Source of the DNA: Bilabrum cf. latius
Lineage: Eukaryota
Direction of reading: 5' to 3'
Assembly (NCBI GenBank): GCA_965178125.1
Contig: OZ237751.1
Span: forward strand, 310,001 to 374,000
Length of the DNA stretch: 64,000 bases
Both the position numbers and the translations under genes were made by a program. Below are positions 3,614 through 58,567 of the stretch, one piece after another. The notes beneath the pieces were generated by a model. That model was not told where the DNA came from and did not search any database. It saw only the letters and a list, made by a program, of their open reading frames with translations. Position 1 is the first letter of the stretch. Every line of letters starts with the position of its first letter.

Positions 3614-6600
3614 ATGAGCAGCTTCCTCGACTAGATTGAATCCACGCTGCATTCGGCTGCGGCTCGACGGGATGGTAGCAGACAAGCAGACAGAGGAAAT
3701 GACCTGATTGAGACGATACCACCTAGATCTGTCCTTGAAAGCTAGATAGAAGCTGGGTCTGCCGCGCCTGACACGGGTGCGCGGTCCTACGTTGCAGATG
3801 GCAAACAAGCATAGAAACATCCAGGCCAATCAATGTGCATTTCATAGCATTAGAATAGATCTGATTCTCTGCAAGCAGCGGTGACAACACCAGCTTCGCG
3901 TCAAGCGAGGGCATCACGGCAGGCAACACCTAGTCGACGCTCCCCATTTGCTGCTGCGGTAGCTTCTTTGGATAACCTTGGCCTGTCCCCTTCCCGAGGT
4001 GCCCATCAGGATGAAGGTGTGCTAGGTCGGGAATATGGTGCACCCCCTACGCGGTACCAAGGGTCCAGCCATGGAAGCCAGCCTGAGGCCTATTCCAAAG
4101 CTACCGCGATGGACCCGGCGGACATGAGGCGTAAAGGGAGCGCACTGGCTTCTCGCGCACGAGAAATCCGCAACGCTTTCTTGCTTGCCCGCGCAGAAGA
4201 GCTGGGCAAGGCCAGGCGACAGCTGGACGCGTGCGCCAGGGAGGCCTCATTGCAGCTGACCATCGCGATGGCGGGGGCGGCCGACAGCCGCGGCGACTCC
4301 CAGCTAGGAGGCCGCAGAGGAACACCAGCCCCACGAAAGGGTGAATTTTTCCTTCAGAGCATTTTGGACGCGCACGATGCGGCGGTGCGGCGTGCAGTGA
4401 GCGGCCAGGCCGCTGGGGATGCAGACTGTGAGGATGGTCAGTCAGGGTCGCTGTAGATCGTGCCACGGCGCGTGCGGTGGGAAAGCGATGATGAGGGCAG
4501 ACAGGGGCTAGGGACTACTGGAGACGAGCAGCGTGGCGGTGCAGATGGGGGCCTGTTGTCTCTTCGGTAGCTTCTGGAGGAGGCAACGGCTGCGGCGTCC
4601 GCAGCCGGGTAGCCGAATGCGAGTGCTGGTTCAGCCGCATCAGCAGGAACCGAACGAACCGAACGTGAATCCACCGCTGCTGACTTGTCCAGCCTATTTG
4701 ATCGTTTGCGCGGCAGTGCACAGCTGGAAACGGCTAATGATGTAGCCGACAAGATATTGTCCAGCGCACGAGGCACCATGCAGGCTGTGGTGACGCAAGG
4801 GCTGCTGGGTGTAGCGAAGCGTGCCGTGCTATCTTTGGCCGAGGTCGATTCACAGCTCCAGGCAGCACTGGCAAGCGGCACCATCGATGTGGAAGCAATC
4901 TCGGCGGATGATCATGCTATCTTTGGCTCGGGTGGAGGCGCAAGCGGGCGTCAGCTGCTGGACATGTCCATTGAGGCAGGGAGACACGCTGCGCTGGTGC
5001 GGCAGGCTGCGGGAGCCATCAGAGGTAGAGCTCTAGCAGTGGATGCTTTCGCGAGGCAGGTGGGCGTAGCGCTGCAGCAAGAACAGGACAAAGTCCGGTA
5101 GGATTGCGAGAAGAACGCGAAGCTGCGATAGGAGGTCGACGAGCGACAAGCCGAGCTGTCCCGACGAGAGGCAGTGCTGGCCGAGGTGCTGGCCGCAGTG
5201 GAGCACCTTGAGGCTCGGAGGGCCAAACTGGCCAAGGGAATGTCTCTCTTACAAGCAGTAGGAGGCAGCAGGCGGCTGGCAATCACCATGAATGAGTAGC
5301 AGCAGCAGCAGCAGGCTGGCACTGGGGTACAAGGTCAGGCCACTCCGGGGCTGTCGAGACCAGCGTCTGCCCGCAGCTTTAGGGGCGTGACAGTGGCCGG
5401 TGCAGGCACGGGAGGGGGCCCTGGCACTCCACGGGGATGGAATGCAAGCGATTCAATGACTTAGGAGAAACCCGAGCCCATGTCCAAGCCCTTCAGCGAC
5501 GAAGGCACGTCAAGTCGGCTTGCGGGAACAGCACCCATGCCACGGTCCGTGGCTGCAAAGCTCCTTGCCTCGCATTACGACCTAGAAGAATCAGGAAGGC
5601 GGGGTGTCGTGCCTCTTGCTACCAGCGGAAAGGGGAGCGGGTTTGCGTCGCTGGCTAGAGATGATGCTGCATCTCCCAACGGGAGCATCATCGGGCACGC
5701 CGCGAAGGAGGCTGCCTGGAGGGGCAGCTTGCGGGGGTCTCCGAGGGTGCAGTCCCCAGCCACAAGCGGGCCAGGATCTCCTACATTCGGTGGATTTAAG
5801 GCGGGAGACCACGGCTCGTTGCAGATGGAGGGCTTTGATAGAGTCTCCGAAGGCCTCATGCGGCTGATGCTGGCCGTGCTGGCACCCGTGGCGGCAAGGG
5901 GCCAGGATGGGGACGCAATGGGGCAGATGTAGGGCCTTTTCGACGATGATAGGGAGGAATATTTCTCCAGCGAGCGTGCTCCAGGCACCACCGCCAGCCT
6001 TGGCGTGCAGCTGCAGAGCCCGCCAATCCGTGGAAATTCTGCTTCGCTGGGTGGTACAGGAAGCGAAACAGCCGGCACAAGCGGCATGCTACCTCGAACT
6101 CCAGCCAGTGCACGTGCCGGGCGGCGATCTGTGCTCGTCACACCGAGCGCTTACATGTCTGAGTCCAAGTACAGCGACACCCACAAGGAAACGAGACCGC
6201 AGCATAACCGCAGGCAAGCCCGCAGCGCAGGATGGTCCCTGCAGGTGGACGTACCACCAACGCACCCGCCTAGCACCGAGTCCGCGCGAGGTCTGCTTCC
6301 CGGAGGCCCAGCCGGAGAGCTCAGCTCAACGGATCTTTTGGCTGCTCGGGTCAGGCTCGCCAAGCGGGCGGCCGAGCTCGACTCCCAGGCAGCTGAGTTG
6401 GGCCGACAGCAGCTCCAGGCCGAGAGGGCGCACCTGGCCGGGCATGCTCGCCTGGCGCAGGCTGAGGAGGCCTCCCGGCGCCGGCTGAAGCAGGAGGAGC
6501 AGCTGGCGCGCGAGGCTGCCAGGCGGATCCGGGATAGCGCGGAGACCAGCATGCAGGAGCTCAAGGACCGAGAGGAGGAGCTGCGTGAGCACGAGGAGGA

Positions 6601-9600
6601 GCTAGAGCAGCAGGCAGCTCGGATAGCCTCTGACAGAGAGGCGTTGGCCAGCAAGCAGGCAGAGGCCGCCGAGGCGCTCAGGCATGCAACTGCCAAGCAG
6701 GAGGAGGCGCTCGTTGAGCAGGAGCAAGAGGCGGCCCGCACGCAAGCACGGCTGGATGCGGGCATGGCGGAACTAGAGTCTGACCGACAGATGATGCAGA
6801 GAACGAAGGAGCAGCACGCCGCCAGGATGGAAGAAGAAAGAGTGTCCGCTGCACGCGCTCGCGCAGACGCCGATGCTGCAGACGAACGTGCCAGAGTTGC
6901 TCTGGCTGAAGCAGCAGCCGCAAGGTCCGCTGCACAGGAAGCCAGGGCGGAAGCGGAAGCCTAGCTGGCGTCCGCCAAGCAGACTAACGATCGAGCAAAG
7001 CGTGCGCAGGACGAAGCAACAGAGGCTCATCGGTAGGCAGTGCTAGCAAGGGAGCGAGCCGCGCGCCAGCAAGACAGCGCAAGCACGCGCGAAGAGGCGC
7101 TCGCTCAGACCGAAGCGCAGAGGAATCGGGCGTGGCTCGAGAGGGAAGAGGCTCTCGTCGCTGCCGAGCAGGCGGTGCGGTCTGCTTTGCAAGGCGCAAG
7201 AGAGGAGAAGCACCGGGCTGCCCTCGCATCCGCTGATGCAGAGGCCACGAGGCAGACCGCCTAGGCTGAGATGGACGAGGCGAGGAGGTGGCACTCGGAC
7301 CATAGGGCACGCTTGCGCGAGGAGGAAGAGGAGCTTGAAAGGCAGCGGTAGTAGATGGAGGACGAAGCAAGGCAGTTGCAGGAAGTGCAAAACGGCCTGC
7401 ATGAGAGAGAGTCAGAGCTTAAGGCCGGGCTTGCTAGGCTAGCTCGCAGGGAGACAGATGTGCAGGAAGCAGAGAAGAGCAGGCAGCAACAGGCAGAGCA
7501 GGACAATCTTTCGGCTAGGACAGCGGCGGAGGCAGAGTTGAGCGAGAAGAGACTGGCTGTGGAAGCGGCACTTCAGGCAGTTCAAGACAAAGAGAAGGCG
7601 GTAAGCGAGCGTGAGGCACAGCTTGCTCACGGAGGGGCCTCTGCCGTTGCGGATCTTGAGGACGATGCAAGCATTGCCCGAGACGAAGCCGAGTGCAGCG
7701 ACTCCCCCCAGCTCAAGCCTGCAGACAGTCGAGCAACTAGCGTCTCAGGTGGACGAACGCGGGCCACGTCGCCCTGCGGCGGAGACTGGGACGAACGAAG
7801 CGGCAGACCGTCGGTGCCGGACGCTGTCGATGCACCATCCCTGCATGAGCGCCGCAAGCGAGAGAATGAGCTTAGAGAAGAGTTGAACGCGTCCAAGCGG
7901 GATGCTTCGCGAGAGGCGACTCGCGCTGATGAGCTAGAGGAGGAACTGCACAGAGCTCGGGCAGCCGCGCAGGCAGCACGCAGCGACGCTGATACGGCCC
8001 GAAAAGCTCTTAATCGTGTGCGGGATGAGGCTTCCGTGGCCAGAAGCAAGCTCGCCGAGGCTGAGCAAAGGGCAGGCGACGTCACTGCCGAGGTGCTTCG
8101 CGTGTGCAGCCGCGCCGATGCTGAGCGCGCGGGCATGGAGGCAGCGGAGGCGCAAAACCAGGAAGAGAACGCGAGGCTGAGGGTAGAGCTGGACGCGGCT
8201 CGACAGGCCTGTGAGGAAGCCATGCGGCTGGCCGAGCAGAGAGCTGAGCATCATGTGCTGGACCGAACGGCCTCTCTGAAGGCCGACTTGCGTGCCGCTA
8301 GAGCAGAGGAGACTCGAGTGAGAGAGCAAATGGCTGCCTGTAAAGAGGCCCTTGAAGATGCAACTGACGAGCTTGCGGCATAGAAAGCTCGAGTGTCGTA
8401 GCTGCTGCAGAGTGCCAATCGATTGAGGGCGCGATAGGAGAAGGAATCAAAAGCAGCTGCTAGCTCTGGCAAGTCGCTCGCGATCGGTTTGGCTGGCAAG
8501 AAGTCTGGTGCAGCACCCGATGGACAGACCATGATGCGCCTTCGGCAGTCTCCCATGGTATTCGCTGCAACTGTGCCTCCTGCGCGACAGCTTCCTGGTG
8601 CATCCCAGGAAACGTTACACGGGTTCGATGATAAGATTTAGCTGTCTCACGAGGTGGCAGCAGACTTAGCCTTAGATAGTGGCCCGGGCGAGGCTGCGGT
8701 AGTGAGTATGAGAGCCATTGCAGATTTGGTACAGTCTGCTAGGCGGGAGCTTGCCCAGGAAGTTACGCTGCACCAAGACGAGAATAGGCGGGCTGAGGAT
8801 CTACAAGCAAGGCTCGAATCATCTGAAAAAAGAGTTGCTGGTCTGCAACTTCAGTTAGCAAAGGAAAAGTCAGCTACTGTCCAGCTCAGCGACCAATTTT
8901 CGAGTTCTGCACGCCAGATTGCAGCATTACAGGCAGATCTCAAGAGCGCACAAGCTAGTGCTGTGACAGTAGGCTCTGGTGCTGATGCCGTGCGAAAGTA
9001 GCTTCGGGCAGCAGAAGAGAAACGCAGCGTGTTGCAGGACCGCGTGGCCGAGTACGAAGGTAGGGTGTAGGAGGTGGAGAAAGAGCTAGCCGAAGCTGAG
9101 CAAGCCAAGGGAGACGCAGTGCAAAGCTTGGAAACAGCTCGAGATAAGCAGCGGAGCTTGCAGGCAAGTTTGTCCACAGCGTATTCCGAGCGTGATTCGA
9201 CCAAGGTTGCCTGTGACGCAGCCGTGTCAGATCTCGCTCGCACCAAGTCGGAACTAGACTCAGCACTTGCCCAAGTTAAGCAACTGAGACGTAGACTGCG
9301 CGATCATGATGCTGGCAGCAGTGCCGAGTTGTAGTCGGTGCAGGCTGAGCTTGAAGCCACAGCTAAGCAGCTCGGCCAAGTTCATCGCGAGCTCGCAGGC
9401 GCTCGCGCGGCTGCAGAGCAGGCAACTTCATCTGCGCAAGAGTGGCAGGGCAAGGTAGCTACGTTGCAAGAGGAACTTACCGATGCACGCGACACTGTTC
9501 TGATGCTGCAAGCAGAGCACACGTCGAACGAGGCAGCTGTGAAAAAAACCTTGGAAAAGGCTGCAGCAGACCGGATCGAACTGCAGACGCAGCTTGCTGC

Positions 9601-12600
9601 TGCGAAGGAGGCCCATGAGAAGGCTGTGGCAGAGGGAAGCAGCAGCACTGACGAGCTCCGTCGTGAGCTGGATGCATCGCGGTCGCGGGTGTCTGAGCTG
9701 GAGGCGGAGGTGGCATCGCGTGAGAAGGCCGTGTCGGCGAGCCAGGATGCGGAGCGTGAGCTGCAGGCGGAGCTTGCTGCTGCGAAGGAGGCCCATGAGA
9801 AGGCTGTGGCAGAGGTAAGCAGCAGCACTGACGAGCTCCGTCGTGAGCTGGATGCATCGCGGTCGCGGGTGTCTGAGCTGGAGGCGGAGGTGGCATCGCG
9901 TGAGAAGGCCGTGTCGGCGAGCCAGGATGCGGAGCGTGAGCTGCAGGCGGAGCTTGCTGCTGCGAAGGAGGCCCATGAGAAGGCCGTGTCGGCGAGCCAG
10001 GATGCGGAGCGTGAGCTGCAGGCGGAGCTTGCTGCTGCGAAGGAGGCCCATGAGAAGGCCGTGTCGGCGAGCCAGGAGACGGAGCGTGAGCTACAGGCGG
10101 AGCTTGCTGCTGCGAAGGAGGCCCATGAGAAGGCTGTGGCAGAGGGAAGCAGCAGCACTGACGAGCTCCGTCGTGAGCTGGATGCATCGCGGTCGCGGGT
10201 GTCTGAGCTAAAGGCGGAGCTGGCATCGCGTGAGAAGGCTGTGTCGGCGAGCCAGGATGCGGAGCGTGAGCTGCAGACGGAGCTTGCTGCTGCGAAGGAG
10301 GCCCATGAGAAGGCTGTGGCAGAGGGAAGCAGCAGCACTGACGAGCTCCGTCGTGAGCTGGATGCATCGCGGTCGCGGGTGTCTGAGCTGGAGGCGGAGG
10401 TGGCATCGCGTGAGAAGGCCGTGTCGGCGAGCCAGGATGCGGAGCGTGAGCTGCAGACGGAGCTTGCTGCTGCAAAGGAGGCCCATGAGAAGGCCGTGTC
10501 GGCGAGCCAGGATGCGGAGCGTGAGCTGCAGGCGGAGCTTGCTGCTGCGAAGGAGGCCCATGAGAAGGCCGTGTCGGCGAGCCAGGAGACGGAGCGTGAG
10601 CTGCAGGCGGAGCTTGCTGCTGCGAAGGAGGCCCATGAGAAGGCTGTGGCAGAGGGAAGCAGCAGCACTGACGAGCTCCGTCGTGAGCTGGATGCATCGC
10701 GGTCGCGGGTGTCTGAGCTGGAGGCGGAGCTGGCATCGCGTGAGAAGGCCGTGTCGGCGAGCCAGGAGACGGAGCGTGAGCTGCAGGCGGAGCTTGCTGC
10801 TGCGAAGGAGGCCCATGAGAAGGCTGTGGCAGAGGGAAGCAGCAGCACTGACGAGCTCCGTCGTGAGCTGGATGCATCGCGGTCGCGGGTGTCTGAGCTG
10901 GAGGCGGAGGTGGCATCGCGTGAGAAGGCCGTGTCGGCGAGCCAGGAGACGGAGCGTGAGCTGCAGGCGGAGCTTGCTGCTGCGAAGGAGGCCCATGAGA
11001 AGGCTGCGGCAGAGGGAAGCAGCAGCACTGACGAGCTCCGTCGTGAGCTGGATGCATCGCGGTCGCGGGTGTCTGAGCTGGAGGCGGAGGTGGCATCGCG
11101 TGAGAAGGCCGTGTCGGCGAGCCAGGATGCGGAGCGTGAGCTGCAGGCGGAGCTTGCTGCTGCAAAGGAGGCCCATGAGAAGGCTGTGGCAGAGGGAAGC
11201 AGCAGCACTGACGAGCTCCGTCGTGAGCTGGATGCATCGCGGTCGCGGGTGTCTGAGCTGGAGGCGGAGGTGGCATCGCGTGAGAAGGCCGTGTCGGCGA
11301 GCCAGGATGCGGAGCGTGAGCTGCAGGCGGAGCTTGCTGCTGCGAAGGAGGCCCATGAGAAGGCTGTGGCAGAGGGAAGCAGCAGCACTGACGAGCTCCG
11401 TCGTGAGCTGGATGCATCGCGGTCGCGGGTGTCTGAGCTGGAGGCGGAGGTGGCATCGCGTGAGAAGGCCGTGTCGGCGAGCCAGGAGACGGAGCGTGAG
11501 CTGCAGGCGGAGCTTGCTGCTGCGAAGGAGGCCCATGAGAAGGCCGTGTCGGCGAGCCAGGAGACGGAGCGTGAGCTGCAGGCGGAGCTTGCTGCTGCGA
11601 AGGAGGTCCATGAGAAGGCCGTGTCGGCGAGCCAGGATGCGGAGCGTGAGCTGCAGGCGGAGCTTGCTGCTGCGAAGGAGGCCCATGAGAAGGCCGTGTC
11701 GGCGAGCCAGGATGCGGAGCGTGAGCTGCAGGCGGAGCTTGCTGCTGCGAAGGAGGCCCATGAGAAGGCCGTGTCGGCGAGCCAGGAGACGGAGCGTGAG
11801 CTGCAGGCGGAGCTTGCTGCTGCGAAGGAGGCCCATGAGAAGGCCGTGTCGGCGAGCCAGGATGCGGAGCGTGAGCTGCAGGCGGAGCTTGCTGCTGCGA
11901 AGGAGGCCCATGAGAAGGCTGTGTCGGCGAGCCAGGATGCGGAGCGTGAGCTGCAGGCGGAGCTTGCTGCTGCGAAGGAGGCCCATGAGAAGGCCGTGTC
12001 GGCGAGCCAGGATGCGGAGCGTGAGCTGCAGGCGGAGCTTGCTGCTGCGAAGGAGGCCCATGAGAAGGCTGTGTCGGCGAGCCAGGAGACGGAGCGTGAG
12101 CTGCAGACGGAGCTTGCTGCTGCGAAGGAGGCCCATGAGAAGGCTGTGGCAGAGGGAAGCAGCAGCACTGACGAGCTCCGTCGTGAGCTGGATGCATCGC
12201 GGTCGCGGGTGTCTGAGCTGGAGGCGGAGGTGGCATCGCGTGAGAAGGCCGTGTCGGCGAGCCAGGATGCGGAGCGTGAGCTGCAGGCGGAGCTTGCTGC
12301 TGCGAAGGAGGCCCATGAGAAGGCCGTGTCGGCGAGCCAGGATGCGGAGCGTGAGCTGCAGACGGAGCTTGCTGCTGCGAAGGAGGCCCATGAGAAGGCC
12401 GTGTCGGCGAGCCAGGATGCGGAGCGTGAGCTGCAGGCGGAGCTTGCTGCTGCGAAGGAGGCCCATGAGAAGGCCGTGTCGGCGAGCCAGGATGCGGAGC
12501 GTGAGCTGCAGGCGGAGCTTGCTGCTGCGAAGGAGGCCCATGAGAAGGCTGTGGCAGAGGGAAGCAGCAGCACTGACGAGCTCCGTCGTGAGCTGGATGC

Positions 12601-14896
12601 ATCGCGGTCGCGGGTGTCTGAGCTGGAGGCAGAGCTGGTATCGCGTGAGAAGGCCGTGTCGGCGAGCCAGGATGCGGAGCGTGAGCTGCAGACGGAGCTT
12701 GCTGCTGCGAAGGAGGCCCATGAGAAGGCCGTGTCGGCGAGCCAGGATGCGGAGCGTGAGCTGCAGGCGGAGCTTGCTGCTGCGAAGGAGGCCCATGAGA
12801 AGGCCGTGTCGGCGAGCCAGGATGCGGAGCGTGAGCTGCAGACGGAGCTTGCTGCTGCGAAGGAGGCCCATGAGAAGGCCGTGTCGGCGAGCCAGGATGC
12901 GGAGCGTGAGCTGCAGGCGGAGCTTGCTGCTGCGAAGGAGGCCCATGAGAAGGCCGTGTCGGCGAGCCAGGATGCGGAGCGTGAGCTGCAGGCGGAGCTT
13001 GCTGCTGCGAAGGAGGCCCATGAGAAGGCAATTTCTGCAGAGGAGGTGGCTGTGCTGAAGCAGCGGGTTGCCGAGCTGGACTAGCATATAGAAGACAAGG
13101 AGGATATGAAGCTTCAACTGGAGCGACTGCAGGCTATTCACAGCAAGGCAAGCTAGCAAGCAGCAGAAGAATCAGGCTCCTTGAAGGCTCAGGTGGAATC
13201 GGCAGAAGAGCGGGCTGTCCTTGCAGAGAGAAACGCTGCTGTCCTCCATCAGCGGGTCGAGTCTGCCGAGGAAGGAGCTGCAATCCAGAGAGACGAGGCT
13301 AGTAAGACTGCCGCAGAGCTGCAGAAATGCAAGCAATAGTTGGCGCTCGCTGCAAGGAAGCACAGAGAGCTTGAGGAGGCGCTCTCGGCAGCAGAGGCAG
13401 ACAGGGATGCAGCAAGCCAGGAAGTTGAGGTAGCGCACAGTAAGGCGAAGATACTGTCAGACGAGCTGAACGAGCAGAAACGGTTGGCGCTGCAGTCTAG
13501 TGGGAAGGAAGATGCAGGGAGAAAGCAGGCTGGGATGCGCACCATGGCTCGCGCTATCCGCAGGGCTGCGATGGGACGCATGAGGGAAGCGTTCGGAGCT
13601 CTTCTACAGAACGCTGCGTCTGAGGCTAGCCTTGGAGAGAAGACGTACAAAAAGATGTATGAGGCAACCCTTGAGCAGATGGAGATGGCATCCCCGAAAC
13701 CAGCGAGGAAAACGGCGAGGCCGCGGGGCTCGAGCGGTACCCCGGGCGTGGCACTTCCTGCCGACTCTCGTGGTGAAGGCGTGCAGAAACGGCCGGCATT
13801 TTCTCCGCTTGCAATTGGCACGCGCAATGGTGGTACTGCCGGTGACGGCGACTCTCCGCAGCCAGGGGGTGGCCAGGGCGATAGCGAGCAGACAGAGGGG
13901 ACCAAGCCCGTCGCGCCATCTTCCCCAAAACCGTCCGCTGGACGAGGCTGGGGTATTTTTTCGATGTTCTCGCCCAAGTCACAGGCTAAGGACGGGCAGG
14001 ACCTCCCTGACCCGCCCGGTGGAAGCAGCCCGAGCCGGGTGGGGGCAGGCATTGCCGTTCCAGAGGAGGCGCTCAAGGCTCAGAGGCTGGCAGAGGAGGC
14101 CTTGGCCGAAGAGGCAAGGGTCCTTGCGTTGGCCAAGGAAGAAGCACAGCGGGACGGTGTTTCTTTCAGTGACGGAGAGGACAGCGATGGGAGCGATGGC
14201 GAGGGCGAGGGTTCACCAGCTGGAACTGAACAGTCTGCTTGGGTGGGCAGAGGCACTGGCGCTGGCGAAGCCGCCCCGTGGATCGGCGCCGGTCCCGCTG
14301 GTTCTGATTCCAGAGCCGTGGAGGCCGGTTTCTCTTCTTCGGACGAAGATGGAGATGAAGATGAAGACGACGAGAAGGAGGAGGAGAAGGGAGAGGGACA
14401 CGGAAGGGGGCGCGGTCCTGGCGCCGGTGCCACTCGTGGTGGCACCGGCGCTGCTTCCGCTCCAAACGGGAGCACCGCAGGTACACTAGCCGGCAGCTCA
14501 CAATCTATAGGGGCTGGAGCCATCGATGCCACTGAGGCGGCACCTGCACAGCCCGCAAGCAGAAGCAGCAGCCCTCAGGCTGGGCCATCGCCCTCCAATT
14601 CCCCTTCAAGTACTCCTCGGACTGCTGGAAGGCGCAGGCGGCGGCTTCGGGGCATGGCAAGGGCTCGCGGCAGCACTGCGGGTGGGTCAACTGACCCGCC
14701 TTTGACTGCTTTGGCTGAAAGCAATACATCTGGAAGCTCTGAGCGCAGGACGAGCGGTACCGCTGGTCACCCGCCGGGGATCGACATGGCGGCTCTGAGC
14801 AGTGATGCAGAGTTGGAGAGCATGAGACAGCAGCTGGCCCAGGGTCAGGCGAGCCTCGCAGAGTCAAGACGAAGACAAGAAGAGCACATGAGATGA
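3614..14896 (+). CDS. Giant single-exon coiled-coil protein (~3,760 aa) with internal 25/35-aa tandem repeats and a disordered acidic C-terminus
   Basis: Ten ORF-track fragments (3881, 4685, 5480, 6005, 7040, 7355, 8654, 9074, 9338, 13340) share one frame. I read the gaps and found only TAG (about 28), never TAA or TGA. ATG at 3614 (MSSFLD*IEST), TGA at 14894-14896. E/A/R/Q-rich heptad composition. Confidence 0.85.
9629..13033 (+). repeat. Coding composite tandem repeat: 30 x 75-bp unit (SASQDAERELQAELAAAKEAHEKAV) interspersed with 11 x 105-bp unit (AEGSSSTDELRRELDASRSRVSELEAEVASREKAV)
   Basis: 30x75 + 11x105 = 3405 bp, which equals the span. Units are near-identical at DNA level. Confidence 0.95.
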
Positions 14897-47452: not shown

Positions 47453-47745
47453 CATGCCGTGCCAGCGGAGGGACCCGTGGCGATTCGCTTGCCGCATAAT
47501 GGGTCTGCCATAAACCAGAACTGAGACACGTTCTGGCGGCCGTGTGGGTGATCTGATATAAATATTTTTGTAAGGTTATGATGACCATCTGATTTTTGCA
47601 AGCGCGGCCTTGTTCGGTGTAATGGACCGCGAAATCTGTTCATGACATGGCCATCTACGATATGTAAGCTTTCTTGCTTGAAGGCCGAGCCAGCTCCGCC
47701 GCAATCGGGCTGGGCCATGTGCACACTAGGCTTGACCGCTACTGA

Positions 47746-48327
47746 TCACCACAGGCCGAAGGAGCTTCTCGAAGAGCCGGCATCTCCAGACTTTGCCGCT
47801 GCCCAGCCTGTTCCAGTCATAGGAGAACCAAGGCCCCCACCGGCCCCAGTGATGTCGGCTGACGGCCAGCCAGAGAAAGGTGCGAGAGCTTCCTCGCACG
47901 TCGACACCAGCCTGGCCCGCTCGGAAGACACATCAGTTCTGGACAACACATCCTGCATGCCATTCCTCATGCACATGAGTAACTTAGACTGATCGTCCTG
48001 TGTGGGCTGCGACCCTGGGGCTATGGATTGCTACAGATCCCTGACGCATCTCTGCTGCACCTACTGCACCTCGACCTGGAGCCCCCCAGAGCTCGAAGAT
48101 TTCCCAACCGCCTCCACCACCGCTACCATGGGTTCCGCTGCCTTCTTTTGACAGGATTCAAGCTGCTGCATGTCGTCGGCATGCTTTGCGATGCAGTCTG
48201 CTTGGTAGAGCATCGACGAGCGCTGCAAAGGCATGATGATAGCCCGCTGGAGCGGCTTGGCAATATCCTCAGTCATCTTCTGAAACTTCTGGCTAAGCTC
48301 TTGGATCTGTCTCTGCGCGTCCTCCAT
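47746..48327 (-). CDS. FAM136A/DUF842-like small helical Cys-containing protein, ~193 aa
   Basis: MEDAQRQIQELSQKFQ...IMPLQRSSMLYQADC...MQQLESCQKKAAEPM...RCVRD...LLMCMRN resembles the FAM136A pattern from memory. ORFs 48061 and 47746 share a frame, joined through TAG at 48061 and 48031. Ends at TGA. Confidence 0.5.
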
Positions 48328-48472
48328 CTTGACGATTTTGCTGGTGAATCGATGACTGTTCGCCGTGGCTCGCGCTCTGGATACCCGGAACAACTCCAAA
48401 AACAACACGCAAAACCATCGCGCGGCCCGGCTCGGGGGGGTCCAACTCCAAAAATAAAGCACGAGATTGAAT

Positions 48473-51400
48473 TCAACAAGGGTCCAGCGACACCTCCGTG
48501 TCGGAGTAGCACCGAATCGTAAACCGCCCCTCCCACGGGTCGAACGTGGAAGCGACCAGCACGTACGAGCCCGGCCCCAGCCTCACCGGCTTGCTCACAA
48601 CCCCGTGAGGAGTCGCGATGTACACCCCATCGCTGGACGTGGACTCCGCCGACCGAATCACGAGCGTGCCTCTCGGCAGGTCCACGGACCCCGCCGCCCT
48701 ACCCCCGGGTCCAGCCTGGGACGGGGCGAGCATCTGCTCGGGGGCCTTGTACACGGACACGTTGATGGCTGGCCAGATCGACGAGGAGCCCGCCCCTGTG
48801 CTGCTCCTGCTCGAAGCCATCGAGGAGCTTCCCTTGTCTGGCCTCGTCAGCAGCTTGGCCCACACCAGGGCACCACCCTGGGGAACAGATGGGGGAACAG
48901 TGAGCAGGAACCGGGGGTTCCTCTCATACTTGCCGTGGTTGGCGCATCCCGCCGCGGTACCGTCAGACATTCTCCAGATGCCCGGCTTGATTATCTTCGT
49001 CTTCATTCCTGTGCCCTCCGGTGGCAGGGCCGCGAGTGCCAGCTCGCCCGCGCTCGCCGATGCAGCCGCCTGCAGGTCCATGGGGCACACTTGCCCCGGC
49101 TTGAACGTCGACGCAAGCACCGTGTAGGCCCCCGGCAAGAGTCCCCTCACGAGAGCGTACGTGAAGCACGGACGGTACGGACCGCTGTCGCAAACCCTTT
49201 CCGCATCCGTCAGCTGGTGGCCAGACATGACCCGCCTGCCCCCGTTGGCTAGCAGCCGCACCTGCGCCGAGACGTCCTTGGAGTAGGTCAGCCGCAGCAT
49301 CAGGTCGCACTTCCCTCGCACGCGCAGAGCGAATTGGGGATTGTCCAAAAACCCCGCGTAGGTTGAGTTACCGCCGGCCGTGGTCACGGTCCACTCACTT
49401 CGCAAAGAACGGAACAACGGGAAGCTGTCGAGCACGGGGTCCAGGGACACTGGGTTGGAGCAGAACGCCATGAGGCTATAGGCCACGTCCCTCATTCGCC
49501 TGTACTGGGAGACAACAAGGGTGAAGAGATGGTCACCGGGGGGCACCTGCATCTTGGTGAGCACGTATGGCGAGTCGTAGTACGTCCCCCGGATCAAAGA
49601 GTGCGTGCTTAGAAACACGCGCTCCCCGGCGCGAACCCCGCCCCCGTCACCTCCGAAATCAGCGTCACCGTCTGCCGACTCCTCCACCACGGAGGCTCCT
49701 TGCTTGCCGTGCGCCGCTCCGAATGCCTTGAGCGTGGAGTGCCCCCGGCCTCCAGAGGATCTCTCCACGCTCCGGCTCTCGATGGACGACGGCTTGCCGT
49801 ACACGTGCAGCGCCATGCAGTCCTTCTCCCCGGGGTCAGGCGCTGCAGCTCGACCCCCGGCCGTCGGGTCCGCCGCCCCCGAGCCTGTGGCAGGCCTACT
49901 GCCTCTATGCCCGGCACCGCCGCCGCCCAAACCATCATCCTCATCTTCCTCCTCATCGTCCACCTCCATCGTGGTCACGTGCCTGATCATGAGCAGCCAC
50001 AGGATTGCAGAGGAAGCCTTGCCGCTCGATCCACCCGCGATGGCCCCAGGCACGCGGACACCCAGCCGAAACTGCGGGTTCTGGCCCACCTGATACTGGT
50101 CGATCCGCGGTCCGGGAGCAGCGATGGGCCATGCCCCATGCCTCACCGCTCGATGGCCGAGTAGTGAGGGGTTCCAAGACAGGTAGATGGAGGGGAAATG
50201 CTGCAGCATGCTTTCCCAGTCGATCCAGAAGATTCCATTGTCGAACTGCATGGCCTGCAGCTGGTCGTAGTGCAGCGCCGCCTTGAGGGCAGGGGTCCAG
50301 TGCGACCTGTCACCGTCAGAGTATTTACCCTTCCACCGTTTCCTGCCCCATGGGTTCTTCATCTTGACCATGCGGTAGGTTCTCCCGTCTGCCTTTACCT
50401 CCCTCGTCTCTAGCACGGCATAGGCGTGTGTCTCCACCAGGCCCCAGCGCTCCTCCTCTTCCTTCGACAGCTTGGGCGTGGAGGCCGTGCACAGGCAATC
50501 GCCCACCTCCATGCCGCCAGAGATGCGCTGCCACTGTCTGTCCGGGTTGAAGTCAGATTCAGTGGCGCGAAGAAACTCCGGGATCCACCCGGTGAGCGCA
50601 TAGAGGTCCTTGCAGGAGTTGCTTCCCGGGAAGGCGTAGGACCCGCACAGCTTAAGGAAGGCCTTCTCGATGATGCTCACCCAAAGCTCGCTCAAGTTGT
50701 TGGAACGGGCGCACAGCAGCTTACCGCTCTTGCCCATGGGCAGGCGGTCATCCACAGTGATCCTGCGCGGCACCCCATTGACGTGCAGCCTGACCACGTA
50801 CTTGCCGCTGGGGTTGAACAGCGGGTTGCCGCCACGGTCCTGAGGGTATACTATGCTGGTGACCAGCTTTCGCTCGAACCTGCGCTCGTACTGGGCAGCG
50901 ACGCACAACGAAGAGACGAAGCTGCAGTCACCGACGAGGTCCTGTTGGATGGTGAACGGCGACACCTGCTCGATCATCTTGGGCGTGCCTCGCAGGAAGG
51001 CAGTCGGGCGCTCCCAGCCCCTCAGGCTCGACCTCTGCTTGGAGCTCAGGTCAAGCAGGCCGTCGGGGTCCTCAAAGGGCCCCTAGAAGGAAAATTGTTC
51101 CCTGCGGACGGAGTCCTCGTCCCAAAGCGGGTAGCTCTTCCCGTTGATGGTGGCGATTCGCACGAGCGCGAGCTCACCGGGGGATAACCCCGCGGTCGCC
51201 TGTCCCCCTAGCGGGGTCAGCCCCCCGTTCCCCGGACTCGCGCCACCCGCCGCCACACCGCCCGCAGGGGCATGACCGCTGCAGCCCCCCTTTGACTCTT
51301 CCGCATCGCCCGCATGCAGCCCGAAGGGGGTCGTCAGCACCAGCTGGCCCCCGTCCCAGCCCCCGCCCGCCCCCTTCCTGCCAGTCGCTGCACCCGCCCT

Positions 51401-52020
51401 AGGCCCCGCTTGTGCCCCCGCTCCCGCTCCAGGCATCGCACCTGCACCCGACCCGCCCGCCCCGATGGAGGCCGCTGAGGGCTTGTACGTCTATCCCGGG
51501 GCCAGGGGCATCCTCCGGAGCATGGCGTCGGTGAGCTCCTCGCCGGCCCCGTGGGTGGCCGACCAGGCCTCCAGCTCGCGGACCCTGGCGGAGCACTGCT
51601 CGTACCTCCGCTGGCACTTTTTCAGGGCAGGGCTGTCCCTCTGACCAATGGAGAAAAATGCGTCAATGGCGGCGCGGTAGTGCTCGAGCGCCTGCTTGTA
51701 CACTGGCAGGGCGGACGACTTGCGGCCGAGCTCGTCCTCGCACATGGCCATCTCCAAAGAGAAGTCGCCCGACATTGCCTCCCGGTCGTGTGTGCCTAAC
51801 TATATAGCGCGCTCCTTGCTGTCGCGAATGTGATCTACGATTACTTTCAGTCGGGATAGGTACTCGTCCGCTCGTTTCTGCATGGCTGCCGAGCGATGCG
51901 GGTCCCTATCCCTCCGAATGGCGCACAGCAAGCTATCGATCCCATCTACATATAGTGCCTTTGCGGTTATGTATGCTTGGGCGGTGTCTGCAGCGATGGC
52001 CTGCGAAGATCTGGCATGCG
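48473..52020 (-). CDS. CAPN7: Calpain-7/PalB-like cysteine protease (MIT domains, CysPc, two domain-III repeats); 5' end and first exon unresolved
   Basis: MIT-like AIAADTAQAY...LYVDGIDSLL...KRADEYLSR. Catalytic QDLVGDCSF (Cys), THAYAV (His) and KNPWG (Asn). NPQF and NPRF domain-III motifs. One frame with TAG at ~51800, 51491 and 51083. Ends at TGA. No in-frame ATG upstream of the MIT domain, so a 5' intron is implied. Confidence 0.88.
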
Positions 52021-52452
52021 CTGGTGGAACGAAGCAGCCGGTATGGTCATCTCCGATTCTTACCCCCAGACGGGACCAGAGGTGGATATCCAGGCCGTTA
52101 TACTCCGCCTTGTAAGCTTAAAACAACTCATGAAGAACAAGAAAAACCAAAAAGTGCTGTAGCAAGTGTTGTGGCTTGGTACGCATTGGGACACGAACCA
52201 TCCATGTCGCAAGCCTCAGTCGATCCTGCTACGCGAGTGCAATAACAGGTCCACAGCATCTCACACGCTAAATAAGTCGCTTGCAGTGGTCGTATATCCC
52301 AGCCATTTCGGCTGGACCGTGTGCTTGCCGGCTCCGAAACCGTCGCGTTTCTGCGATCCGGAGCAATCCAGTTCCGCATTCTCCGATGCGCGGCGCCAAG
52401 CACCAACGGACGGCAACCAGTTTGACTCCACACAAGGCCAGAACGCCTCACT

Positions 52453-55400
52453 ATGGCATCCGTGGGTGCAGTTTTGGACGAATGCTAGCGATCTAGTACA
52501 GGAAGACGGGGTAGAACAGCCAAGTCTCTCGCCAAGTTGCTGGAAGCCAAGCCAGAGCAGGTTCAAGAGGACCTCCTCGCAACAGTGCGGCGCTGTTTGG
52601 TGGTCTCCAAGCGGGAGCCTGCTGTGGAACGCGTTATCAGTGGTATTGTTGCCTTTGCCGTGTAGAAGGGCCAGCAGCCGTTCCTGGATGCCCTTTTCGA
52701 GGTGAGTGTGCAGGCCCGCGAAGCGCACCAAACAGCTCGAGTCACGCTGAGCAAAAATGAGGCGTAGCTGAAATAAAATAAAACTCGGATTTGAAATTAA
52801 TATACATTCGCAGCACCTAATACAGTACTCGACGGCCAAAGACAAGGGCGTCCGCTTGAAGTGCTGCTCGATGCTCAGGCAAGCTCTCGCTGGCATGGCG
52901 GACGACGCAGAGATGAGCGACGACACCTGGTAGCAGCTGCTTGACGCTCTTATGGCACGATCTAAGGACAAGAATCCCGCGGTGCGGGCAGAAGCAGCTG
53001 CTGCTCTTGACCGCCTTCAAACAGGGGAGGACGACTGCCCCGCCATGGCGCGGCTGCTCGAAATGATGCAAGCGGACACATCTGCGTGAGCGCTCTCGCA
53101 TCAATAGCAACGAATTCGAATCCCCAAGCCGGTCTACCTCTCTCTCTCCGCATCATATTTTATTCTCTCTCCGCAGGGACGCCCGCAAGGCCGCCACGGG
53201 TACCATCCAGGTCACCCACGGCACGCTCGAGCCATTGCTCCGCAGGGCAAGAGACGAGAGCGAAGCCGTCCGCGCAGTGGCCGTGGGCGTGCTCGGCTCC
53301 AAGGCCGCCCCCTCTGCGATCGACCAGACGGACCGCACCAGGATGCTACTCGACACCCTCGCGGACCCAGCCCCCTCGGTGCGGTCCGCTGGCAGGGCGC
53401 TGGCACTCCGGTGGCTGGCGGCGTGCGACCACAGCCTGGCCAAACTCGCGGCCCTGGCGGGGGACGTCACGGACCCGGAGTCGGAAAGGGCGGCCAGCTT
53501 CGCGGTGGCCGCATGCATGGAGGCGGCGGCCAGGGGGTCTCCACCAGCCGAGGCCAAGGCAGCCAGGGTGAGTTCCGCAGGCGCGGCGCCGATCCGGTCC
53601 ATCTGGAAGCAGGCTAAGGCGGCCATCAAGGCGTACCGCCCTCCCGCCGTGGGACCCTCGAGCGGCGCAGGCGGAGACGATGGCGGAGACGCATCCCCGC
53701 TGGTGGTGCAGCCGACCGACGCGATCGTGTGGAGGGTGCGCTGCGACTGGCTGGCGGGCCGGGGAGGGCGTGCGCGGGACGATCTGGAGTCGTGCCTGCC
53801 CACTTTGACCACCCTCGCGCTGGCCATCAAGCAGACCGTGGACGCGGGGGCGGAGATGGCGACCGCGACCGCGGTCGGCGCCACGGAGGAGGATGAGCAG
53901 GGGGATGATGGCCTCGGCGACTTTGCCCAGGAGATGCCGAGGGAGTGCTCGTTCGTGCTGCGGCAGCTACTAGCACTGTGCGCGCACGCCGACTGGGGCG
54001 ATGAGGCTGGCCGCAGCAGGGTGGAGCAGGTGCTCGTCGACTCTGTGCTCGCCCGCCCGGGGGTACCGGACGGTGCTCTCTTCGGCGTGACGGGGGCGCT
54101 GCTGCTGTCGATGGGCAGCGACCACGAGAAGCACGCGAGTCGGGTGCTGCAGGTGGCCGAAGAGCTGCACGACGCGGCCCGCGCCGAGCTGAGGATGGCT
54201 GGAGGGGCCGCGGGGGCGCCCGAGGACGTTTCCGAGAACTGCGCGCTGGCCGTCCTGCGCGCTCTCAGGATCGTCTCCGCCCTGCTAGGGGGCACCCAGG
54301 CCGGAATCGACTCCATCTCGAGCGCACTCGGCAAGGCCATGCAGGAGATCGTGTGCCCCGCCGTGGCGAGTCCGTACCCCGCTGTGCGCGGTGCGGCGGT
54401 GCGATGCCTCGCCGCGGATGCGGTGCTGCGTCTCGGCGCGTGCTCCTGGCCGGCGGGGGGTCTGCCAGCCGATTCGAGCGCGGGCGCCGCGTGGGCGGAC
54501 CAGGACCAGGCTGCGGCATCCTCTTGCTCGTCAGGACCCGACGGCTCCCTCACCCAGGCACAGCAGGCCGCGCTGGAGGCTGCCGCCACTGCCCTCGAGG
54601 TATCCTGCCGGGGCATCGCGAGGGAGGAGGACGAGTGCCGGCTGGAGGCCGCGAGGGGCGCCCTCGACATCGTGTGCGCGCTCCCGCTGTAGCTGCCGCT
54701 GGCCAGCGGACCTCGAGCTGGCGCGGGCGTTCGGGCGGCTCAAGGGCTCGGGAGCAGGTGCGCCACCGCGGGCCGGAGGGCAGTGACGGCGCTGATCCGC
54801 GTGGTGCTGGAGCACGTCAGCCGGCCGGCGCATCTAAGGGCGCAGCGTGCCGGGGAGGACGGGGCGTGGAGGGTGCGCCTGCGCGCCAGCATCGCAGAGG
54901 GTCTGTCTCGGGCTGTGCTGTCGGGCAGGCTGTCTGCATCGCTTGACGACTAGGCTGCTGGGGCTGGGGAGCAGCAGGAAAAGAAGCAGGACCAGACGAT
55001 GGGTCTGGACGCTAGGGCGGTGCGCGCACTCCTGCGGCTCTACTGCCAAGACGACTCGATCGGGGCAGAGGCAGCGGCCGACGCGTGCTCCGAGCAGGCC
55101 GCCACTGCCTTCGACACGATCGAGGACCCAGACGAGGCCGCTGAGGTGGCTACCGAAGGCGCCAGAGACGCTGAGCTGTGTCTCGCGGCCGATGCTAGGA
55201 TGAGGCAGGTGGTCGGGTCCTCTTTGCCCACCATCGCGGAGATGGGGCCGAGATGCAGGGCCGTGGTGGCCAAAGGCGCATCGGAGGCTCTCCGCTGGAT
55301 CATGGACGCGAGCCGCAGGGATGCCGCGTGCCTGCTGGCGGCTGAGGAGCTCGGCGGTGCTGACCCAGGGCAGCTGTCCAAGTCGAGGACCACAAAGGTG

Positions 55401-56741
55401 GAGGTGGCCGCGCGGTCGGCGGACCCCGGCGACAGGGAGGTGGCGCTCGCCGAGACCGCCATGAGCCTCGTGGCCTTCCTCGCCAGCGCGGGAGACAAGG
55501 GCGAGGAGAAGGGCAACGGCAAGGGCGCTGTCGAGCCGCCCCAGCTGCCTGCTGGAGCATCCGGCTCGGCGGACACGGCGCTCCCGCTCCCCAGCATCGG
55601 CACATACGGTACTACCGCGGGCACGCCGGCAGAGCAGGTAGCTGCCTCGCTGCTGGTAGAGGCCCTGGCAGACCCGAAGGGACCCTTCGCCGTGCCCATC
55701 GCGAGGAGCCTGGCGAAGCTGCATGCTAGCACGCCCTCCGATGCCGCCGTGGTGGTCGGTCCGCTCGCGCTGCTGGCCAATGAGGCCCTCGAGTCCTGCG
55801 AGAGAGCCGCCGCTGCCTCGCTGACCAAGTTCAGGAATGGCGCTCTGGCCGTCGCATCGGCTGCTGCCGGGGGAGCTGGCGGTGAAGACGCTGAGAAATC
55901 CAAGAAAGCCAAGGGTAAGGGCAGGGGGCGCGGTCGGAAAGCAGCTGCCTCTGCATCGGATGCCGCCTCTGCTTGCGAGGAGCTGGAGGCGGACGAGGAT
56001 GTGTGCGAGGCAACCGAGCTGCTGCGCGGGCGCGTGGCTGCTCGTACCGAGGAGATCCGTGGGGTGGGCAAAGTGGCAGCGGGGCTGGTGCTGGGAACCA
56101 TCGACGAGGCCGAGGTGATGGGCACAGACATGGGCGACGTGCATGAGGTAGAGGAGGAGGAGGAGGATGAGTCTGCAGGGCAGGCCTCGGTCTTCGGAGA
56201 CTCGGCTGGATCTGCGGCAGCTGCTACCGATGGGGCCGGCCTTGACGAGAGCCAGTGGGAGATCGAAGGCGTGGAGGAGGACGACGAAGAATAGGCTTCC
56301 GAAGGACATGGGGAGAGCGGCGGCCGCAGGTCGATGATGTCTTTGTCACCGGACGGTCTGGAGGGCCTCGCGGATGAAGCGGCGAGGAGCAGGCGCAGCC
56401 GGGGAAGCGGCAGTCGGGGGAGCAGCCGCCGGGGCACCATCCGAGGCTCTGCTGCGGGATCCGACCTCAGGAGTGCCATGGAGGCGGCAGTGGAGGACGT
56501 CCGGTCTGAGGTAGCCGGCGACGAGGACACCGAGGATGAAGTCGAGGAGGAGGAGGAGGAGGAGGAGGAGGAGGACGCCAAGGCTGGCCGGGGACGGGGT
56601 CGGCGGGGTGCATCGAGGACAAAGTCAAGTCGCGGCCGCGCTGCTCTCGAGAGCGTGGATGCAGAGGAAAACACGCGAGGCGGAAGGAGGACCAGGCGGA
56701 GGCGCGGCGTGGTCGCGGCTGCCGACGAGGATGAGGAGTGA
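52453..56741 (+). CDS. NCAPG: Condensin I subunit CAP-G (HEAT repeats), ~1,360 aa, join(52453..52701,52814..53085,53177..56741)
   Basis: KREPAVERVI, AKDKGVRLKCC, RSKDKNPAVR...ALDRLQ...CP, RRARDESEAVR and AEGLSRAVLSG motifs. Two frame-preserving GT-AG introns (52702-52813, 53086-53176). TAG at 52486, 52663, 52931, 54690, 54951 and 56292. Ends at TGA. Confidence 0.88.
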
Positions 56742-56842
56742 GGCACTGGCGATGCTACCTCAAGCACTCCCCTAATTTGTATCAGCCGCATGGCTGCAAT
56801 GCTTGCTGTAGTCCACATCCTATCTCGTTTTCACAAGAAGCA

Positions 56843-58567
56843 TTAGTTTCCCCTCAACCTCTGAATATGCTGCACAACACCCCCGTTCTGTTGCGATACT
56901 TCAGCTTGCGCCAGCCGGCCCACAGGTTGCGTGCTCTGGTCGAGCTGGAGATCCACCGTCACATCGCCCTGCGGGGATCGCTGCAAGGCAATCTTGACAA
57001 CCGCGCCCGCACTTCCCATGGGCGCGTCCAGAACTTCTTCCAGCGCGTGCTGGATGAAGAGGTCGCTCCGGTTGCTGAACTGCAGTGTGTAGTGCACGTG
57101 GGCCGCGCCGCGCAGCAGCAGGGTAGAATTCCGCAGTGTGTCGGTCAGGTCAAGGACAATCGTGTTGTTGGCAGCAGTAATGTCTCCAGCTTTCACTGTC
57201 CTTCTGATCTTGAGCCTCGTGGTGCTTGGAGTCACCAGCATGCCCTGGTACTCTGGCTGCACGATGTTGTCGGCAACTACCGTGTCGATGACCTTGCCTG
57301 CATCCACGAAAAACCTGCCACTCTCCGAGTCGCCGCTCTCCCACGGGTACACGAACGGAAAATCATCGTACACATGCCCGAACGCGACGTTGCCCGTCAC
57401 CTGCAGGCCGGTCAGCTCGGTGTTGGGCCCGTGCGGCACGAGCACCACCCCACCCATGCCCGGGCTAGCCACACCCCTTCCGAGCAGAAACAGAGAACCC
57501 GTCACCAGGTCATACGCCGGTTGATCGATCACGATGGGACACCCGTCCATGTAGCAGTTCTGGATGCGCACCCCCTTGACCTGGACACCCCCAGGGACGA
57601 TTGTGCCATTTCCCCAGTTGGGCCCGTCAGTGGGCACAGGCCCCGCGCAGCCCGAAGACACCCAAATGCCTCCGAGGGGGTACTCCGAGGGGGTCTCAGT
57701 GTACACGTGCAGGTTACGAATCACAGTGGCAGATCCATTCACCGTGACACCGTGCCGGGTGCAGAAGACGACCACGTCGTCGATCGAGTGGTCGTTGCCG
57801 TCAAACCAGATGGCCGCACCCGTCTTGGCCTCTTCATCGTGACACAGGGACCTGTCGCTGAACTCCTTAAACCAGGATTGCGTGATGAATACTTCGTTGT
57901 TCTGCCCCCTAGTCCATAGGCCCCTCTATCGGTACCCTGTGAAGAGCACCTGGAAGACACGGATTTCTTCAACCGCGATTAGGAGCAGGCAGCCCGCCGC
58001 CGCGTGGGCTCCGTCTATTTCCATGTCCTAGAAGGTCAGATAACGGTACCGGATGTCATGTGCCGAATCAATCGGAAGGCCGTCCACTTGTACGACGAAC
58101 GAGTCCGCTGGAAACGTTGATGGATCCGCGTGGATTGCCCCGTTGGTCAGCACTACGTTGCCGCCACCCCCCTTTGGAAAATGCAAGGGCTGGCCGACTA
58201 GGTAATGCGCGCCACAAAAGTCAAATACAAGCCCACCGAGGTCCGGCTCTGAGAAACCCTGCGGGATCGTGCTATTATCCAGTGTCCGGTTGGCAAGCTC
58301 GGCTCGAGCCCAAGAAAGCTCCAACACCCTCTGAATTTGAGAACCAACATCGGTACGCCCCGTAGTGTCCGAAACAAAATCACACACGTACACGGTTCCA
58401 TTATAATTAGCATCGGAAAAGTCTCTGGATAGAGCTGCAGCAGCCGAGTTGCTCTTTCGCCTCTCCTATTGCCTGGCTACCCAGCTCGGTACATTTGGAG
58501 GAAGCCACTGCGAATGAACGACCGAAAATGTCACTGCTAGAACAGCAATTGGTGTCAGCCCAAACAT
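56843..58567 (-). CDS. Secreted right-handed beta-helix protein, QUARTET3 (QRT3) polygalacturonase-like / pectate_lyase_3 family, ~574 aa
   Basis: Signal peptide MFGLTPIAVLAVTFSVVHS. DLGGLVFDFCGAHYLVGQPLHFPKGGGGN, GAAIWFDGNDHSIDDVVVF and RIQNCYMD match my recollection of QRT3 (DLGGARIDL..YLISRPLRFP..G.GN; GTAINLMGNDNAVTDTVIF; RIVNSYLD). TAG at 58466, 58028 and 57926. Ends at TAA. Confidence 0.8.

Follow-up and report, generated by a model that had tools for sequence, protein, structure and literature searches.

Introduction

Changes of the nuclear genetic code have been described in a handful of eukaryotic lineages, and those that separate UAG from UAA are the rarest, according to the excerpted text of PMC11687900. 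That text lists UAG alone as a glutamine codon in Iotanema spirale, Protocruzia tuzeti, Hartmannula sinica and Trochilia petrani, and as a leucine codon in an uncultured rhizarian and a serine codon in the green alga Scotinosphaera, UAA staying a stop codon in the last two cases (PMC11687900). Both UAA and UAG encode glutamine (NCBI translation table 6) in many ciliates, Hexamita, Ulvophyceae, Streblomastix and Amoeboaphelidium, as listed in the same excerpt (PMC11687900). In Blastocrithidia, as summarized in an excerpt of PMC12153298, UAA and UAG are read as glutamate by cognate tRNAs, UGA is read as tryptophan by means of an altered tRNA-Trp and eRF1, and UAA also serves as a stop codon. The code in which TAG means glutamine (table 15) is further described, in partial accounts, for crAss-like and other phages, whose late genes are recoded. 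Below, we analyze a stretch of 64,000 nucleotides of nuclear DNA from Bilabrum cf. latius (assembly GCA_965178125.1, contig OZ237751.1, positions 310,001 to 374,000), hereafter the window, in which TAG codons lie within the reading frames of most of the genes.

The reading that we favor, with a probability of about 0.9 as judged from sequence comparisons, is that nuclear UAG encodes glutamine in this organism and that UAA and UGA remain stop codons, which is the code of table 15. A preliminary description of the window, made from its letters alone, had proposed the same code. The proposal agrees with what we found: 97 TAG codons in the coding frames as against no TAA and no TGA, glutamine codons opposite 36 of 49 TAG sites in an orthologous gene, and TGA or TAA at the C-termini.

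Iotanema spirale resembles the window organism in that UAG encodes glutamine, UAA is a stop codon and the coupling of UAA with UAG is broken, as far as the excerpt of PMC11687900 describes it. Unlike this fornicate, the window organism makes tryptophan (it carries an IGPS-PRAI fusion gene), is GC-rich and is placed by one gene tree with stramenopiles and not with metamonads; the two codes would be of independent origin. The ciliates Hartmannula, Trochilia and Protocruzia share both the codon and the residue, and their code was likewise recognized from UAG at conserved glutamine positions, according to that excerpt (PMC11687900). The crAss-like phages use the same table 15, whereas the window comes from the nuclear genome of a eukaryote that has spliceosomal introns and an axonemal dynein.

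TAG, TAA and TGA in the coding frames

Two very large genes hold most of the in-frame TAG codons. The gene for an axonemal inner-arm dynein heavy chain (DNAH3/DNAH7-like; 19646..42394, reverse strand) spans 7582 codons from stop to stop, contains 50 TAG codons and ends in a TGA at 19646-19648 (reverse strand); if the standard code applied, no open piece within this frame would exceed 617 amino acids. The gene for a giant coiled-coil protein with an internal tandem repeat region (3329..14896, forward strand) spans 3855 codons and has TGA as its stop codon; of its 30 TAG codons, 28 are downstream of an ATG at codon 96. Neither frame has an internal TAA or TGA, as had been stated of a 22.7-kb and an 11.3-kb frame (the latter is 11.6 kb by our measure).

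Eight stop-to-stop frames supported by Pfam or by codon usage contain 30, 4, 5, 50, 4, 3, 3 and 3 TAG codons, 102 in all. Three further TAG codons lie upstream, in exons 1 and 2 of the condensin CAP-G gene, and five smaller frames with a positive codon-usage score contribute 12 more. The counts that follow were made on nine trimmed frames, namely the eight supported frames cut to their likely coding parts and the IGPS-PRAI gene, which is free of TAG. In the 16,966 codons of these frames we counted 97 TAG, 0 TAA and 0 TGA, in line with the earlier statement that about 100 in-frame TAG codons interrupt nine or more genes that have no internal TAA or TGA. The off-frames of the same nine genes (33,914 codons) contain 215 TAG, 84 TAA and 684 TGA; at this off-frame rate of TAA and TGA (768/33,914), about 384 of the two together would be expected in frame, as against none observed. 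TAG itself makes up 0.57% of the codons in frame and 0.63% off-frame and is thus not avoided. Because TAA and TGA are absent in frame while TAG is as common there as off-frame, the asymmetry is absolute, and neither chance nor gene decay can be its cause. Counted as glutamine, TAG accounts for 97 of the 828 glutamine codons of the window genes (about 12%), in a window of about 62% GC.

A codon-usage score, trained on part of the dynein frame and applied to the other frames in 100-codon windows, was positive over the entire dynein in every such 100-codon window, including the N-terminal 2300 codons that had not been used for training. It was also positive for the coiled-coil, SET, calpain, CAP-G and IGPS-PRAI genes and for one gene of unknown family, and the coding signal continued uninterrupted across the TAG codons.

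Comparison with an orthologous dynein contig and with paralogs

A scan of metagenome contigs yielded an 8799-bp contig, L001, that consists of a single end-to-end open frame with 30 TAG, 0 TAA and 0 TGA. L001 aligns with dynein residues 2918-5842 of the window and is identical at 2405 of 2902 residues (83%). Since the two sequences differ at 659 of 926 fourfold-degenerate sites, synonymous sites are saturated, and the L001 and window organisms are well separated. At least one other well-diverged organism therefore has TAG in frame too, so the code is a trait of a lineage and not of one strain.

Twenty TAG codons of the window could be compared with L001, where they face 13 CAG, 1 CAA and 6 others (CAC, AAT, CGG, GCA, TCC and CGT). 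In the opposite direction, 29 TAG codons of L001 face 16 CAG, 6 CAA and 7 others (CAC twice, GCC twice, AGA, ACA and GCA) in the window. Taking TAG sites in either sequence together, CAG or CAA stood opposite 36 of 49 (73%), and a codon for glutamate, lysine, tyrosine, tryptophan or leucine opposite none. Ordinary CAG and CAA codons of the window have CAG, CAA or TAG opposite them in L001 at 107 of 136 sites (79%). TAG thus pairs with glutamine codons at a rate near that of the ordinary glutamine codons, and for this reason it behaves as a synonym of CAG and CAA that is freely exchanged with them in evolution. TAG makes up 30 of the 154 glutamine codons of L001 when so counted.

Codons for other residues gave a different picture. 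CAG or CAA was found in L001 opposite 3 of 159 glutamate codons and 4 of 95 lysine codons of the window, and TAG opposite none of them; the tyrosine (46), tryptophan (36) and leucine (276) codons had neither CAG or CAA nor TAG opposite them, and none of the 266 serine codons faced TAG. The reassignments of the rhizarian and of Scotinosphaera likewise concern UAG only, but the residue differs, given that 0 of 276 leucine and 0 of 266 serine codons of the window face TAG. We regard the comparison with L001 as the decisive line of evidence for glutamine.

A pair of C2H2 zinc-finger proteins bears on the residue as well. Paralog A (15447..17264, forward strand) has 4 TAG codons and ends in TGA, and paralog B (17674..19551, forward strand) has 5 TAG codons and ends in TGA. 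One TAG of copy A is a CAG in copy B (alignment columns 1745-1750), inside a zinc finger. One TAG also sits within the run CAG CAG TAG CAA. A swap of TAG for CAG between paralogs and TAG within glutamine runs had both been noted before, and both are present.

The two zinc-finger genes are tandem duplicates and nearly identical over their common part. A run of AGC (serine) codons is 45 bases longer in one copy than in the other; the remaining differences lie in the 5' parts and at the one TAG/CAG codon.

Gene ends and alternative readings

All 14 frames that could be delimited end in TGA (10) or TAA (4), and none ends in TAG. The TAA ends named in the preliminary description, at 2469, 47450 and 56843, were all found, the other ends that it named being TGA and never TAG. 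Three of the gene ends are supported by homology. The TGA of the dynein gene shares its alignment column with the final residue of 11 homologs; the match to the PRAI profile of Pfam reaches position 192 of 193, and the TAA of the IGPS-PRAI gene follows five residues later; and calpain domain III is matched to its very end, with the TGA of the calpain gene ten residues further on. By these alignments, TAA and TGA remain stop codons.

These results set the window apart from several described codes. The codes of table 6 likewise turn stop codons into glutamine codons, presumably by way of a tRNA-Gln with a changed anticodon, but in the window TAA is not a sense codon: none occurs in frame among the 16,966 codons, and four frames end with it. 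Blastocrithidia is also a flagellate with in-frame UAG read by a cognate tRNA; in the window, by contrast, there is no in-frame UGA or UAA, and none of the 49 TAG sites is opposite GAG or GAA. In the ciliates with UAG-only reassignment, 93.5-100% of C-terminal alignments end at UAA, according to the excerpt of PMC11687900, whereas TGA is the commoner stop codon in the window (10 of 14).

Several observations weigh against the glutamine code, and they are given in this and the following paragraphs together with the alternatives to which they may lend weight. None of the 14 window TAG codons that stand opposite a glutamine codon of L001 has TAG opposite it, and the two sequences share no TAG site at all, where a fully neutral synonym would be expected to give about 3 of 14; this is a weak hint (p about 0.04 by our own estimate) of a fast turnover or a mild disfavoring of TAG codons. 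Neither the tRNA nor the release factor that such a code would involve was encountered: the 64-kb window has no tRNA gene by ARAGORN and no match to Rfam, and neither the window nor L001 carries an eRF1 gene.

Among the alternatives, a context-dependent code survives best and still seems improbable. UAG would encode glutamine inside genes and act as terminator near the 3' ends of some mRNAs, as in Condylostoma and karyorelict ciliates. Just 14 gene ends were examined, too few to dismiss occasional termination at TAG, and the distance from the final TAG to the stop codon in the eight main genes, 58 to 869 codons, exceeds on average the spacing of about 175 codons that the TAG frequency predicts, in what is a small sample. 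Set against this are the complete lack of TAG at the 14 frame ends, the TGA or TAA found at the homology-supported C-termini of dynein, calpain and IGPS-PRAI, and the consideration that a code left with two dedicated stop codons does not need such ambiguity.

The standard code combined with site-specific U-to-C editing of RNA, by which TAG would become CAG in the mRNA, is considerably less probable. Editing would yield the same TAG/CAG pattern between orthologs, and the public sequencing runs that carry the stretch include none on record as RNA, so that they are silent on transcripts. At the level of DNA, Logan contigs of four runs from four studies match positions 22000-41900 without one differing letter. 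Contigs of run X5, from another study, cover all 45 TAG codons of this interval, those of X8 cover 26 of 45 and those of X6 cover 8 of 45. Coverage is likewise 45 of 45 for X1, which may be the source sample. Joints within the matching contigs were considered as signs of splicing and rejected, as their sides are only 23-29 letters long and lie in repetitive, low-complexity parts. An editing system would have to make an accurate change at about 0.6% of all codons and would have to do so at wholly different sites in two relatives, as the window and L001 have no TAG site in common. No nuclear editing system of such a kind is known.

A third alternative is that UAG is a sense codon for a residue other than glutamine, such as glutamate, lysine, leucine, serine or tyrosine. 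We aligned the dynein with 12 of 14 homologs, leaving out the two weakest (P0015 and P0016), and found that 26 of the 50 TAG codons lie in columns filled by at least 8 of the 12. Glutamine is present in 12, 11 and 9 of the 12 homologs at the TAG residues 5872, 5723 and 2579, respectively. On the other hand, TAG 2622 and TAG 6825 lie in columns with glutamate in 10 of 12 homologs, TAG 5527 in an arginine/lysine column and TAG 6725 in a proline column. In the most conserved columns of this alignment, TAG falls on 2 glutamine, 2 glutamate and 1 proline column, and CAG and CAA show the same spread (12 glutamine, 2 glutamate, 1 proline, 1 glycine and 1 lysine). Deep homology alone would thus decide the residue only moderately.

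We also tried a naive profile test in the manner of Codetta, with a uniform prior, which assigned TAG to glutamate. The same test assigned CAG and CAA to glutamate, histidine codons to lysine or alanine, and methionine to leucine. Because true glutamine codons were likewise mislabelled and the test is biased towards common residues, it was dropped as uninformative. A self-calibrated test, which asks which of the residue classes of the query itself the TAG columns resemble, ranked glutamine first for the 26 TAG columns, with glutamate 2.43 and lysine 3.83 log units lower. When calibrated, sets of 26 true glutamine columns were called glutamine in 296 of 300 draws, and true glutamate columns were called glutamine in 1 of 300. 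A wider set consisted of 147 homologs of dynein residues 5100-6290, obtained from 150 representatives by removing three close relatives. In this set, glutamine fills the column of TAG 5723 in 137 of 145 sequences and that of TAG 5872 in 128 of 141, which upholds the earlier remark that TAG occupies conserved glutamine positions in dynein. Over the nine usable TAG columns of the wider set, glutamine again came first, with a lead of only 1.0 to 1.7 log units.

Fragments of close relatives among public library proteins gave similar results. P0239, a 96% identical dynein fragment, has glutamine at TAG 6012 of the window and ends where the window has CAG. P0280 (97% identical) has glutamine at TAG 5287 and ends exactly at TAG 5329, and it has glutamate at TAG 5194, in a low-complexity insert. 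P0220, a 58% identical dynein fragment, ends at TAG 6250. The three look like standard-code gene calls cut at in-frame stop codons, the kind of stop being deduced from the proteins.

A residue other than glutamine could therefore appeal to the two TAG codons in glutamate columns, to the one in an arginine/lysine column, to the glutamate in one close relative and to the outcome of the naive test. Its probability is very low, lower than that of editing, given that 36 of 49 TAG sites face glutamine codons and none a codon for glutamate, lysine, tyrosine, tryptophan or leucine in L001, that the calibrated tests rank glutamine first, and that the naive test mislabels true glutamine codons alike.

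The least probable explanation of all, with nothing found in its favor, is an artefact, be it sequencing or assembly error, decaying pseudogenes or TAG-bearing micro-introns: runs from other studies have identical letters and the L001 organism has the same trait, decay would also have given TAA, TGA and frameshifts, none of which occurs in the 16,966 codons, and TAG cannot mark micro-introns because TAG codons stand in gap-free conserved columns, the introns seen in the window being 91 and 112 nt long with GT-AG borders. Assembly error and tiny introns had been named in advance as findings that would overturn the code, and both are ruled out by these observations.

Placement of the organism

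Cafeteria roenbergensis provides the best named match of the IGPS-PRAI protein (45% identity across 47% of the query); oomycetes, diatoms and brown algae come next. In a FastTree tree of 121 rows, the protein is grouped with Cafeteria and with seven unnamed proteins in a nine-row clade (local support 99). This clade adjoins the oomycetes with a support of 20; the query has a long branch, and the composition of Cafeteria and of other rows of the clade is skewed. The nearest ESM Atlas clusters of IGPS-PRAI are dominated by Oomycota and Bacillariophyta. The dynein gave no taxonomic signal: its best named matches come from chytrid fungi and from animals (44-49% identity), and the 120 matches listed include no stramenopile, which probably reflects the make-up of the database and a word-based choice of candidates. 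No rRNA gene is present in the 64-kb window. The sequence of this one gene points, with low confidence, to a probable heterotrophic stramenopile near the bicosoecids.

Judged by its composition and its genes, the organism belongs neither to the ciliates nor to the fornicates. Long, GC-rich contigs with 22-kb genes are unlike ciliate macronuclear DNA, and the window, with genes of 22 kb on a long contig of about 62% GC, is of this kind.

DNA of the stretch was found in runs under at least four organism names, with small shares in algae metagenome and protist metagenome runs. We conjecture that the organism may travel as a small flagellate that is co-cultured with other organisms or contaminates their cultures. 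A scan of genome contigs revealed no mis-binned contigs of the organism.

Other genes and features of the window

The dynein frame, at 7582 codons, is much longer than that of its homologs (about 4000-4700). Its motor contains many low-complexity inserts rich in alanine, glycine and serine, and it has an N-terminal extension of about 2300 codons that is coding by codon usage. Two metagenome contigs from different collections, L004 and L005 (138 and 129 kb), give the same 36%-identical dynein match at identical locus coordinates. They may represent two assemblies of one organism, and they have no bearing on the question of the code.

Within the coiled-coil gene, positions 9335-13084 form a repeat block of near-identical units of two alternating lengths. 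The block has no TAG, as against 30 in its flanks, which fits a recent homogenization of the repeats. An eight-residue string is common to the start of the coiled-coil frame (3329-3360) and that of the frame at 58596-59408 on the reverse strand (about 58650-58700), which suggests, at the level of translated sequence, a short repeated DNA element near the two gene starts.

A SET-domain protein is encoded at 44045..47098 (reverse strand); its frame ends in TGA and has 4 TAG codons, of which one falls within the portion that shows coding signal, beginning at about codon 200. The MIT-calpain gene (48473..52117, reverse strand; Peptidase_C2 and Calpain_III by Pfam) has 3 TAG codons and ends in TGA. 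It likely has an upstream exon, because the MIT domain begins before the first ATG of the frame. A HEAT protein resembling condensin CAP-G/Cnd3, identified by weak Cnd3 and HEAT matches in Pfam, is encoded in three exons at 52453..56741 (forward strand), with 3 TAG codons in exons 1 and 2, 3 in exon 3, and a TGA at the end. Its GT-AG introns lie at 52702-52813 (112 nt, 46% GC) and 53086-53176 (91 nt, 51% GC), and their removal gives a continuous frame from the ATG at 52453. The genome is nuclear and spliced, intron-poor and with very long exons.

The gene of unknown family with positive coding signal (56843..58708, reverse strand) has 3 TAG codons and a TAA at 56843-56845. The IGPS-PRAI fusion for tryptophan synthesis (456..2471, forward strand) has no TAG and a TAA at 2469-2471. 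The first 62 or so positions of the IGPS profile are missing from its frame; since the N-terminal part is not in the frame, the gene probably has an upstream exon. Three smaller frames are a 362-codon frame with strong coding signal and no Pfam family (42787..43875, forward strand; 2 TAG, ending in TGA), a 213-codon frame for an acidic protein with coding signal (46811..47452, forward strand; 1 TAG, TAA at 47450-47452) and a DUF842-family gene (47746..48582, reverse strand; 2 TAG, ending in TGA), whose match to PF05811 has an E-value of 4e-06 and 27 bits as against a cut-off of 25.1. Two others are uncertain as genes, namely a 281-codon frame with moderate coding signal (2390..3235, forward strand; 2 TAG, ending in TGA) and a 270-codon frame with coding signal (58596..59408, reverse strand; 5 TAG, ending in TAA).

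The reverse-strand frames 42513..44189, 46689..47639 and 54740..56830 were rejected as genes, being non-coding by codon usage. The open frames at 59378..63168 were rejected as well, as they consist of an 88-bp tandem repeat with non-coding codon usage. This array comprises about 40 copies (59483-63025) that match at 95-97%; its period is not a multiple of 3, and all three reverse-strand frames are open throughout, mimicking genes. A second tandem array, C-rich on the forward strand, with periods of 112, 167 and 281 bp, occupies 63365-64000, up to the end of the window.

Discussion

On the reading favored here, cytosolic translation decodes UAG as glutamine with the efficiency of any ordinary sense codon. 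The machinery can be proposed by analogy with other stop-to-glutamine codes: a tRNA-Gln(CUA) might have arisen from tRNA-Gln(CUG) by one anticodon change, and the N-domain of eRF1 might have lost recognition of UAG and kept that of UAA and UGA. Because one essential mRNA, that of the dynein, carries 50 UAG codons, nearly complete decoding is required at each of them, and leaky read-through would be insufficient.

The preliminary description had further suggested an undescribed and independent reassignment. This is not contradicted: the organism is neither ciliate nor fornicate, and our literature search, mostly of open-access main texts, found no report of nuclear UAG reassignment in stramenopiles; in a 2024 stramenopile review, "genetic code" occurs only in a reference on mitochondria. 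The assignment to stramenopiles comes from a single gene tree, and the suggestion is accordingly tentative. The kind of code is known (table 15), and the lineage appears to be new. We put forward, tentatively and at slightly less than even chances, that this is the first nuclear stop-codon reassignment in stramenopiles, a lineage-wide change of UAG to glutamine at about 62% GC, perhaps including the relative with the 58% identical dynein.

In a GC-rich genome, codon-capture reasoning makes TAA, not TAG, the rare stop codon. If the proposal is true, the setting of about 62% GC would speak against simple codon capture driven by AT pressure and in favor of an ambiguous intermediate in which a tRNA-Gln(CUA) competed with eRF1 and UAG was split from UAA.

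There are consequences for annotation. Standard-code gene calling shatters the genes of this organism, and genomes, metagenome bins and transcriptomes of the lineage need table 15. Public protein libraries already contain dynein fragments of relatives that end at TAG or CAG positions of the window, and with the same DNA present under several organism names, mis-annotation may spread as contamination.

A further independent case of UAG reassignment would inform how eRF1 loses UAG and yet keeps UAA and UGA. It would also inform whether reassignment requires that the codon first become rare, and both points would hold especially for a case from a GC-rich genome that belongs to neither ciliates nor metamonads.

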